Of a stretch of DNA of 64,000 nucleotides, positions 59,112-60,423 are shown one piece after another. The stretch spans positions 11,811-75,810 of the forward strand of contig JANLTH010000033.1 in assembly GCA_031362865.1 (NCBI GenBank), read 5' to 3'. The translations under genes and the position numbers were made by a program. The first letter of the stretch is position 1, and each line of letters begins with the position of its first letter. A model generated the notes under the pieces. The model was not told the DNA's origin. It worked only from the letters and a program-made list of their open reading frames with translations, and searched no databases. This DNA comes from Burkholderiales bacterium (GTDB taxonomy: Bacteria > Pseudomonadota > Gammaproteobacteria > Burkholderiales > JAEUOS01).

Positions 59112-59216
59112 ATTCCATTTCCAAATCATGACTATATGTCGTTGCCCCTTCCTAGCCGTGCTATCTGCACTGTCATCGTCGGTTCGCCTAATCTAGTCAT
59201 GATGTGGAAATGGAAT
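59112..59216. repeat. Palindromic ~104-bp element, copy A (REP/MITE-like)
   Basis: The ends are ATTCCATTTCCAAATCATGACTA ... TAGTCATGATGTGGAAATGGAAT, a 23-bp terminal inverted repeat with 1 mismatch. The core is shared with copy B. Confidence 0.8.
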
Positions 59217-59227
59217 GAGGACCTGCC

Positions 59228-60364
59228 ATGCCGCTTGACGATCAAGGTGCGCCATTGAGTAGCGCACGCAATTGCTTCTGCGCCGCGCCCACCACCACCC
59301 GCCGTGGATTTTTCACGGGTCTGGCCGCTTTGGGGGCGGCTACTGCGCTACCCGGCTGCGCTACCAGCTCAGGCAGCCCGGGCGCTGCCAGCGGCCGCTA
59401 CCGGATCGACACGCACCACCACCTCTTCTCGCCCACCTACGTGAGCGAGCTTGCCAAGGTCAACCAAGCGCCGCCGATTGTGCGCAACTGGTCAGTGGCG
59501 AAAACACTAGAAGACATGGAAGCGGCGGGCGTGCAAACCTCGATGCTCTCGGTCACCACGCCGCATGTGCAATTTGCCGATGCGGCGGGGGCGCGGCGCA
59601 TCGCGCGTGAAAGCAACGAATGGGTCGCCAAATTGGCCGCTGAGCACAAGGGGCGCTTCGGCTCTTTCGCCATGCTGCCGATGCAAGACACCGACAGCGC
59701 ACTCAAAGAAATCGAGTACGCACTCGATACGCTCAACGCCGACGGCATCTGCCTCCTAACCAGCTATGGCGACAAATGGCTGGGCCATGCATCATTCGCA
59801 CCGGTGATGGACGAATTGAACCGTCGCAAGACCATTCTCTACACCCACCCGACCGTTGCCAATTGCTGCCGCAACCTGCTAGCCGATGTGCCGCCCACGG
59901 TGGTGGAGTTCGGGGCCGACACCACCCGCACGATTGTGGACATCGTGTTTTCCGGCACGGCAGCGCGCTGCCCGGACCTCAATTTCATCTTCTCCCACGC
60001 CGGTGGTACGCTGCCATTTTTGACTGAGCGCCTGCTCAAAATGCCGGTGCTCGACCCCAAGCTGGCCCCGCGTGTGCCGCGTGGCGTGCTCCATGAGTTA
60101 CAGCGCTTTTATTACGACACCGCGTGGTCGGCGCACCCAGGCGCACTGGCTTCGCTGATGAAGCTGGTTTCGGTGAACCAAGTGCTGTTCGGTTCGGACT
60201 ATCCGTATCGCACCGGGGCAGATCACGTCAAAGGCATTGCCGACTACGGCTATTCAGCCAGCGACCTGTTTGCCATCGGCCGCGGCAATGCGCAGCGCTT
60301 GATGCCGCAGTGGCGCGCTTATTCCATTTCTAAATCATTACGATATGTCGTTGCCTCTTCCTAG
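59228..60364 (+). CDS. Amidohydrolase-2 family protein (ACMSD-like) with Tat signal and lipobox
   Basis: The twin-arginine motif TRRGFFTGLAALGAATALPGCA is followed by the metal-binding IDTHHHLFSP. GSDYPY lies near the C-terminus. The last 14 codons lie inside repeat copy B. Confidence 0.75.
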   Translation: MPLDDQGAPLSSARNCFCAAPTTTRRGFFTGLAALGAATALPGCATSSGSPGAASGRYRIDTHHHLFSPTYVSELAKVNQAPPIVRNWSVAKTLEDMEAAGVQTSMLSVTTPHVQFADAAGARRIARESNEWVAKLAAEHKGRFGSFAMLPMQDTDSALKEIEYALDTLNADGICLLTSYGDKWLGHASFAPVMDELNRRKTILYTHPTVANCCRNLLADVPPTVVEFGADTTRTIVDIVFSGTAARCPDLNFIFSHAGGTLPFLTERLLKMPVLDPKLAPRVPRGVLHELQRFYYDTAWSAHPGALASLMKLVSVNQVLFGSDYPYRTGADHVKGIADYGYSASDLFAIGRGNAQRLMPQWRAYSISKSLRYVVASS

Positions 60365-60423
60365 CCGTGCTACGCGCACTGTCGTCGGTGCGCCTAATCT
60401 CGTAATGATTTAGAAATGGAATT
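60321..60423. repeat. Palindromic ~104-bp element, copy B
   Basis: The ends are ATTCCATTTCTAAATCATTACGA ... TCGTAATGATTTAGAAATGGAAT, a perfect 23-bp terminal inverted repeat. The core TATGTCGTTGCC.CTTCCTAGCCGTGCTA..GCACTGTC.TCGTCGGT.CGCCTAATCT is shared with copy A. Confidence 0.8.

Follow-up and report, generated by a model that had tools for sequence, protein, structure and literature searches.

A mobile, Correia-related miniature element on both sides of an amidohydrolase gene in a Burkholderiales bacterium

The DNA studied here is a stretch of 64,000 nucleotides from a Burkholderiales bacterium (contig JANLTH010000033.1, positions 11,811 to 75,810), further referred to as the window. It contains two palindromic elements of about 100 nt, copies A and B, located on either side of a single amidohydrolase gene and differing from each other in a paired way along their stems. 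What are these elements, and how did they come to bracket the gene? The original prediction, made from the letters alone, considered an extragenic palindrome, a MITE (miniature inverted-repeat transposable element) and a transcript-stabilising or terminator structure, and suggested that the two copies could mediate excision or duplication of the gene. We found that the element is a non-autonomous mobile MITE that moved recently and leaves target-site duplications of the form TNA. The joint reading (identity as a mobile MITE that makes TNA duplications, the insertion history given below, and a core homologous to that of the Correia elements of Neisseria) has in our estimate a probability of roughly 0.85. 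The class of the element is ordinary; what stands out is the clean insertion history and the kinship with Correia elements.

The limits of the elements were set from reading of the sequence together with the alignment of the family. The features of the two copies are listed below, L077 being a metagenome contig used for comparison.

59110..59112, no strand: left target-site duplication of copy A, TGA; the same TGA stands on both sides of A
59113..59215, + (core orientation): MITE copy A, 103 nt; older insertion, between divergent TPMT-like and amidohydrolase genes
59113..59134, +: left terminal inverted repeat of A, TTCCATTTCCAAATCATGACTA; pairs with 59194-59215 with a single mismatch at repeat position 12
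59158..59170, +: central core hairpin of A, GTGC-TATCT-GCAC
59194..59215, +: right terminal inverted repeat of A
59216..59218, no strand: right target-site duplication of A, TGA, read from the sequence
60319..60321, no strand: left target-site duplication of copy B, TTA; joined to G60425, it formed the ancestral stop TAG
60322..60421, + (core orientation): MITE copy B, 100 nt; recent insertion, not in L077
60367..60379, +: central core hairpin of B, GTGC-TACGC-GCAC
60422..60424, no strand: right target-site duplication of B, TTA

Two palindromic copies bracketing one gene are thus present as predicted, with exact limits 59113–59215 and 60322–60421. They are direct copies, 86–87% identical with one 3-nt indel, and no other copy was found in the window; the terminal 17-mer occurs there at four arms, compared with 0.19 matches expected by chance. 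Each copy consists of terminal inverted repeats (TIRs) of about 22 nt (TTCCATTTCYAAATCAT..) followed by a core of about 55 nt that continues the hairpin. The predicted arrangement of TIRs around a shared core was confirmed, the TIR proper pairing over about 22 nt; a repeat search gave inverted arms of 30 nt, flanking repeats included, with complementarity of 90% for A and 93% for B. Folding, which had been proposed as a check, yielded one long stable hairpin per copy (A, −46.2 kcal/mol, z-score −7.9; B, −49.4 kcal/mol, z-score −8.8), and none of 200 shuffled sequences folded as well. The copies are 100 and 103 nt long, below the ~300 bp usual for MITEs, and contain no transposase gene; the sole open reading frame (ORF) running through B is the tail of the amidohydrolase. 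Copy A occupies 106 of the 192 spacer nucleotides between the TPMT-like and amidohydrolase genes, one copy of the duplication being counted. It stops 12 nt before the ATG at 59228 (11 nt if counted from the end coordinate of the original prediction), and the GA of the right TGA overlaps a Shine-Dalgarno-like motif GAGGA at 59217–59221. The only further short-range inverted repeat of at least 20 nt in the window is located at 61430–61476 (21-nt arms, 5-nt loop, 81% complementary).

The order of events at the locus can be read from L077, which is about 97% identical to the window over 1.7 kb. This contig carries copy A with one substitution, whereas copy B is absent. The gene features to be compared are as follows.

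59228..60364, +: amidohydrolase gene (PF04909 Amidohydro_2), 378 aa; ancestral length 364 aa
60320..60364, +: 14 new codons (YSISKSLRYVVASS) and new stop TAG; element sequence except for the first two bases
60425..60429, no strand: GCTTG, junction at which 97 bp of L077 are deleted; in L077 the segment lies between two GCTTG repeats
60426..60620, +: 5'-truncated remnant of a gene for an 87-aa small membrane protein; the start codon and about 23 codons are gone

Since L077 carries A without B, copy A is the older insertion, common to both sequences, and copy B is the recent one. The site of B in L077 reads CGC ACT TAG CTTG..., with a single TTA kept across the stop codon TAG; in the window it reads CGC GCT TA(element B)TTA GCTTG... 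This empty site and the duplicated TTA show that B inserted at C|TTA|G, the stop codon of the amidohydrolase gene. The TAG was thereby destroyed, and the reading frame now continues for 14 codons within the element, so that the stop is replaced by element-encoded codons; the present stop TAG is found at 60362–60364, within copy B. The amidohydrolase of L077 (P0001), which is the best homologue at 98% identity, ends with ...PQWRT-TAG and has 364 residues, exactly 14 fewer. The tail is missing in all ten aligned homologues, nine of which end at about ..P(Q/R)W... Look-ups by exact sequence gave no recorded protein identical to the amidohydrolase or the TPMT-like protein of the window. The original prediction that the C-terminus is encoded by the element, and that a locus without the element could reveal the ancestral end, proved right on both counts: B supplies YSISKSLRYVVASS and the stop codon, homologues lack the tail, and the orthologous locus gives the ancestral end ...PQWRT at 364 aa.

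A second change accompanies copy B. The window lacks 97 bp that are present in L077, where they are flanked by GCTTG repeats (positions 1566–1570 and 1663–1667) and encode the start and about 23 codons of the 87-aa membrane-protein ORF. Its absence between these microhomologies, beside B, deprives the downstream gene of its 5' end; the remnant at 60426–60620 has an in-frame TAG directly upstream. Copy A, flanked by matching repeats, is inserted at a TGA just upstream of the ribosome-binding site of the amidohydrolase gene. No empty site for A was recovered, the loci of the distant amidohydrolase homologues P0003 and P0047 being not syntenic. Since A and B differ by about 13% while the flanking DNA of the window and L077 differs by about 3%, B was probably derived from another master copy and not from A. 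The locus provides a clean natural before-and-after case, in which an enzyme gains a new C-terminus from a MITE and the adjoining small gene is left without its start.

Two direct copies around one gene could also form a composite transposon that moves, excises or duplicates the amidohydrolase gene as a unit. The orientation of the copies agrees with that, and mobilisation of integrons and resistance genes by MITE pairs is known (PMC3184786, PMC10969869). Each copy, however, has its own matched duplication, TGA/TGA for A and TTA/TTA for B; since the outer flanks differ (TGA vs TTA), the unit was not inserted as one piece. Moreover, in L077 this gene stands in an unchanged context with A alone, and the two copies are 13% diverged. 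Hence we consider a composite unit very improbable, and the role in excision or duplication suggested in the original prediction did not hold. As the identity of the A–gene–B segment, a composite transposon is rejected on account of the separate duplications, the unlike outer flanks and the A-only contig.

The separate insertion of two mobile elements, supported by this locus, is supported further by the family to which they belong. We scanned one genome per species with a one-arm pattern and obtained at least 76 loci. Among the matches listed, most are from one glacier Polaromonas metagenome-assembled genome (MAG; JAYVGI01) and others from further Polaromonas and Comamonadaceae MAGs; those in other phyla are apparently chance matches. 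Searching the listed loci with a profile identified at least about 50 copies of a 99-nt element that is about 75% identical to A and B and has the same ends as the window copies, TTCCATTTCTAAATCAT...GAAATGGAA. About 20 copies among these loci are located at contig ends, as expected since repeats break assemblies. A 3-bp direct repeat of the form TNA stands on either side of every full copy. Among the 28 copies parsed, A and B included, the repeat is perfect in 24 (TTA in 11, TAA in 9, TGA in 4) and has one mismatch in the remaining four. A target-site duplication of fixed length is a mark of cut-and-paste or replicative transposition by a DDE enzyme. The duplications, the further copies and the empty site of B strongly support the MITE-like alternative of the original prediction, and copies of the family occur in related genomes as well as at the two sites. 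It has all structural hallmarks of a MITE except a known cognate insertion sequence (IS).

The insertion of B at a stop codon has parallels in the family. Reconstruction of the empty sites puts the TNA duplication of 8 copies out of 31 on the stop codon of an ORF with 150 codons or more; among all TNA sites in the same loci the share is 3.3%. These are copies from Polaromonas and other Comamonadaceae (L003, L005, L008, L014, L053, L063, L070) and the window site 60319–60321. The family seems to accumulate at gene ends, with target preference and purifying selection being left unseparated by this control.

Several further observations concern individual copies. In L006 (3237–3665) an ORF runs on into a family copy, in the frame that is used in the window, and gains ..YSISKSL..; donation of one and the same peptide to host ORFs may be a recurrent effect of the element, though this ORF is uncurated and perhaps spurious. 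The single Polaromonas MAG contains two core variants, ..GCACTGTCTGCGGCTCC.. and ..GCACTCTCGTAGGCTCC.. (e.g. L015:5581–5679 vs L072:2893–2991), and their coexistence points to at least two active sublineages. In two Polaromonas MAGs, orthologous loci (L060, 3544–3646, and L075, 559–661) retain only the first ~52 nt of the element; this truncated copy, conserved between the genomes, abuts the 3' end of a small ORF (..FKKDSDKSIVADIKAQRKSG).

Palindromic, mostly extragenic and present in many copies, the family might be taken for repetitive extragenic palindromic sequences or their mosaics (REP/BIME) spread by a RAYT (Y1) transposase, as the original prediction had suggested. In one locus an IS200/IS605-like Y1 ORF is indeed located 1.1 kb from a solo element end. 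This ORF is not bracketed by the element, however, and no RAYT flanked by inverted copies was seen in the loci. REPs are 20–40 nt long, and Y1 transposition makes no duplication. The element, in contrast, has a length of about 100 nt, TIRs of 22 nt and a 3-bp TNA duplication. On size and duplication we reject the REP/BIME–RAYT identity, and we give this alternative hardly any credence, less than any other considered here. The locus in question, L039, comes from a Polaromonas MAG; the Y1 transposase-like ORF (..DHVHFLVQS..GYFASTV..) spans 1440–1823 and the 36-nt solo MITE end 307–345, with no evident link between the two.

Does the MITE have relatives outside these genomes? Search of PLSDB by blastn with copy B gave chance matches only. 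With a Polaromonas copy as the query, related copies were found in Cupriavidus, Ralstonia, Eleftheria and N. gonorrhoeae, and the kinship was seen only in this way. Seventeen places were detected in the chromid of Cupriavidus metallidurans CH34 when its own copy was used as the query, and related copies are carried by Ralstonia megaplasmids and plasmids of Eleftheria terrae. The two N. gonorrhoeae entries contain at least 40 places each, and these are Correia elements of the short form. Correia elements surfaced in a plasmid search because gonococcal chromosomes are filed in PLSDB: NZ_CP119140.1 and NZ_CP119142.1 are 2.17-Mb N. gonorrhoeae chromosomes filed as plasmids.

We compared the families using hidden Markov models (HMMs). 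The Correia HMM was built from five short N. gonorrhoeae Correia elements only. In the 64-kb window it produced exactly two matches, both on the plus strand and both at the cores of the copies (B, 60340–60412, E = 1e-4; A, 59134–59204, E = 2e-4). In 564 kb, comprising the window and the 76 loci, it produced 48 hits at E < 0.01; all 48 are within MITE copies and in the family orientation, and none is elsewhere. Reciprocally, an HMM built from A and B only retrieved five Correia copies in 50 kb of gonococcal DNA. By count from the profile alignment the core is about 70% identical to that of Correia elements, with the shared motif being roughly CGTTGCC..CGCCTTGCCGT.C.....G.ACTGTC.GCGGC..CGC.GCCT. 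The alignment of the profile to Correia begins only at model position 21–24. The relatives can be arranged in a gradation. In Eleftheria the copy is flanked by a perfect TTA duplication, and its ends, GAGCGGCT-AACAAAAC, resemble the Correia end TAGTGGATTAACAAAAAT.

The likeness to the short, 104–108-bp form of Correia elements (CREE, NEMIS) extends beyond the sequence of the core. Both are non-coding, of the same size and present in many copies, some of which disrupt or abut genes. Both have a long hairpin of terminal inverted repeats with a directional core and a short duplication T..A. The homologous part of the core covers about 55–70 nt, with profiles matching in both directions, and both retain the central stem-loop with its flanking GCC/GGC pairs. 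The differences are the outer terminal repeat, TTCCATTTCYAAATCAT vs the 26-bp Correia repeat TATAG[CT]GGATTAA.. (PMC2911385), the duplication, 3-bp TNA vs TA, and the host, Burkholderiales and not Neisseria. The long form with an IHF site was not seen. The kinship is well supported for the core, and on the evidence of sequence the family is Correia-related but not Correia in the strict sense, sharing the core while having neither the defining repeat nor the TA duplication.

The literature searched places Correia elements in Neisseria only and gives their mobilising enzyme as undetermined (PMC2649163, PMC2911385, PMC3184786, PMC2229807). It yielded no account of Correia-like elements from other hosts than Neisseria, and within it the kinship appears undescribed. 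A MITE has been reported in Polaromonas sp. JS666 (Mattes et al. 2008, as cited in PMC10969869). It comes from the genus in which the window family is most abundant and is represented here by this citation only; the family may already have been seen under that report.

The stems raise the question whether the hairpin itself is under selection. Between A and B, CATGACTA/TAGTCATG is replaced by CATTACGA/TCGTAATG, i.e. paired changes occur at TIR positions 18 and 21. Careful alignment not only kept these two but added a third at TIR position 10, which is C:G in A and T:A in B. All three left-arm differences are matched by a complementary change in the right arm (chance probability about 7e-5 by our own estimate), and one difference, at TIR position 12, is unpaired. 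In the TTCC-type family, concerted changes of both arms are found at nine or more TIR positions in about five lineages. Copies A and B belong to lineages whose two ends changed in concert.

We also examined pairing in the core, using an alignment of 15 sequences from six groups (window, Polaromonas, other Comamonadaceae, Cupriavidus/Ralstonia, Eleftheria, Neisseria). RNAalifold predicted the core hairpin from this alignment. Of the cells in the predicted pairs, 93.8% are paired, as opposed to 18–51% when the partners are slid by 1–3 columns. Double changes affect three pairs and 11 cells, a level reached by none of 500 shuffles. The clearest case is the central stem: the window and Polaromonas have GTGC/GCAC, for which Neisseria, Cupriavidus and Eleftheria have GTAC/GTAC.

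Paired changes may have different causes. Any transposase needs symmetric TIRs, and template switching homogenises quasi-palindromes even in the absence of selection. The arms did evolve in concert, yet this alone does not prove selection of the hairpin; it is predicted alike by such selection, by the fit of both ends to one transposase and by template-switch conversion. The core covariation favours structural constraint or conversion over recognition of the ends by a transposase, as far as can be judged from few pairs and a structure derived from the same alignment. The original prediction had taken the covariation as a sign of hairpin selection. Its first half stands, since the covariation is present both in the TIRs and, across genera, in the core; selection is not demonstrated, because transposase recognition and template switching also give paired changes.

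One could nevertheless suppose that the element is primarily a selected RNA or DNA hairpin (a stabiliser, a terminator, or a site for RNase III or a host factor) and that its mobility is secondary. The great stability of the hairpins and the changes of both arms within the family agree with this, as do the compensatory core pairs across genera (GTGC/GCAC vs GTAC/GTAC), which lie where no constraint from a transposase end is expected, and the core being about 70% identical to Correia while the outer TIR is not. Hairpins of Correia elements are, besides, cut by RNase III (PMC2649163, PMC10969869). On the other side, the duplications, the empty site and the copy number mark a mobile element first; TIR symmetry and template switching explain the arms without selection; and the core covariation amounts to three pairs in a structure taken from the same alignment. 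Furthermore, there is no Rfam match and no terminator with a T-run, and the copies are found in many unrelated contexts. At the gathering threshold nothing was found by Rfam in the whole window, and a permissive scan of the region returned only sub-threshold miRNA and snoRNA noise. The terminator offered in the original prediction was not recovered: neither copy is followed by a T-run, and no terminator was called at these places. We therefore regard a primarily selected hairpin as unlikely, albeit less so than the composite or the REP/BIME alternatives. A regulatory hairpin that evolved locally is rejected as the primary identity because of the copy number and the empty site, although later exaptation of the element is conceivable.

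The MITE may also affect transcripts. Correia hairpins are documented substrates of RNase III (PMC2649163, PMC10969869). By analogy, a transcribed copy would form a long duplex, and its near-perfect 22-nt part is plausible as a putative RNase III substrate. Binding or cleavage of such a duplex could alter mRNA stability or translation. Copy A, located between divergent genes and abutting the GAGGA motif, has possible effects on transcription and translation.

The mobilising enzyme remains to be considered. The MITE would be mobilised in trans by a transposase making a 3-bp staggered cut at T-N-A. The TNA duplication is a signature of the IS1031 and IS427 groups of the IS5 family and of PIF/Harbinger–Tourist elements. 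Because of this signature, the likeliest class is a DDE transposase of the IS5 family (IS1031/IS427-type, PIF/Harbinger-like), which we propose tentatively, at somewhat less than even odds. Ends of the form GAG.. are characteristic of the IS1031 group. The ends of the window and Polaromonas elements are TTCC.., and those of the Eleftheria relative are GAGCGGCTAACAAAAC; the Eleftheria GAG.. ends would fit the IS1031 group. An IS5-family ORF located between TTCCATTTC.. (or GAAGTCATTTC.. / GAGCGGCTAAC..) ends and flanked by a TNA duplication would identify the transposase.

The family resembles the IS5-derived and Tourist/PIF-Harbinger MITEs in the 3-bp duplication (T-N-A or TWA), the short TIRs and the presumed mobilisation in trans. 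It differs from the IS5-derived MITEs in that no cognate IS or transposase was found in the loci and plasmid searched and the window ends start with TTCC; the assignment is made from the duplication signature. As a small palindromic mobile element entering coding sequence, it may also be compared with the MITEs that alter ORFs, such as RPE of Rickettsia, ERIC/RU and RUP. Unlike these, to which it has no sequence relationship, it affects the coding sequence by landing on a stop codon and not by in-frame internal insertion.

Several results weigh against the account given here. The only members of the window's subfamily seen were A, B and the copy in L077 that is orthologous to A; when metagenomes were scanned twice with patterns specific to this subfamily, no further copies were obtained, the first scan giving no match and the second one chance match in AT-rich DNA. 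The outer ~20 nt of the TIR have no detectable similarity to the Correia repeat. The IS5 class is derived from the TNA signature and from group features of the insertion sequences, and the window TIR starts with TTCC and not with GAG. Neither a transposase nor an IS with matching ends was detected in the window. The fetched loci that were searched contained none either, no transposase is annotated in the first 50 kb of an Eleftheria plasmid, and viral contigs gave none, only five chance matches in AT-rich phage DNA; together these form a small search space. Finally, a scan for consensus promoters and terminators called none inside A or B.

Three other searches addressed the transposase. A relaxed search for TIR half-sites in all loci produced only solo or truncated ends (L017, L060/L075, L039), and a six-frame scan of the loci for the N-terminal motif of the IS427/IS1031 type gave no match. 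An all-against-all comparison of the loci detected other short repeats beside some copies and no transposase. These non-coding repeats are 200–600 bp long and 80–92% identical; they are found beside MITE copies in L006, L014, L024, L031, L040, L043 and L053 and recur in several contigs of the same MAG. No transposase was present in the two loci inspected.

The kinship of the cores and the covariation within them permit a broader, though doubtful, suggestion. The families might constitute an undescribed superfamily of the Correia type spanning Neisseriales and Burkholderiales, with members in Neisseria, Eleftheria, Ralstonia, Cupriavidus and Polaromonas/Comamonadaceae, in which the core hairpin is conserved beyond the transposase-binding ends and with compensatory changes. 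Were this so, the core itself would be functional, in transposition or in recognition by a host factor or RNase, and relatives that duplicate TNA, some of them having GAG.. ends, would suggest an enzyme of the IS5/IS1031 type for the Correia elements. In Burkholderiales that can be cultured and are genetically tractable, such as Cupriavidus metallidurans CH34, families with a homologous core and clear TNA duplications would offer a comparative handle on the functional part of the element and a concrete hypothesis on the class of the transposase.

Apart from this locus, the window is heterogeneous in composition. The G+C content is 50–56% over positions 1–42000 and 57–63% over 42001–64000. The former part is densely filled with ORFs of the same strand, resembling a cluster for surface-polysaccharide or nonulosonic-acid biosynthesis; they include aminotransferases, epimerases/dehydratases, and glycosyltransferase-like and flippase-like proteins. 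Positions 1–42000 may be a horizontally acquired island. On the minus strand, a 371-aa ORF at 51442–52557 opens with WAG repeats, which are followed by a glycine-rich stretch (MAGWAGWAGWAGWAGWAGWAGWGGGGNGGGGG...).

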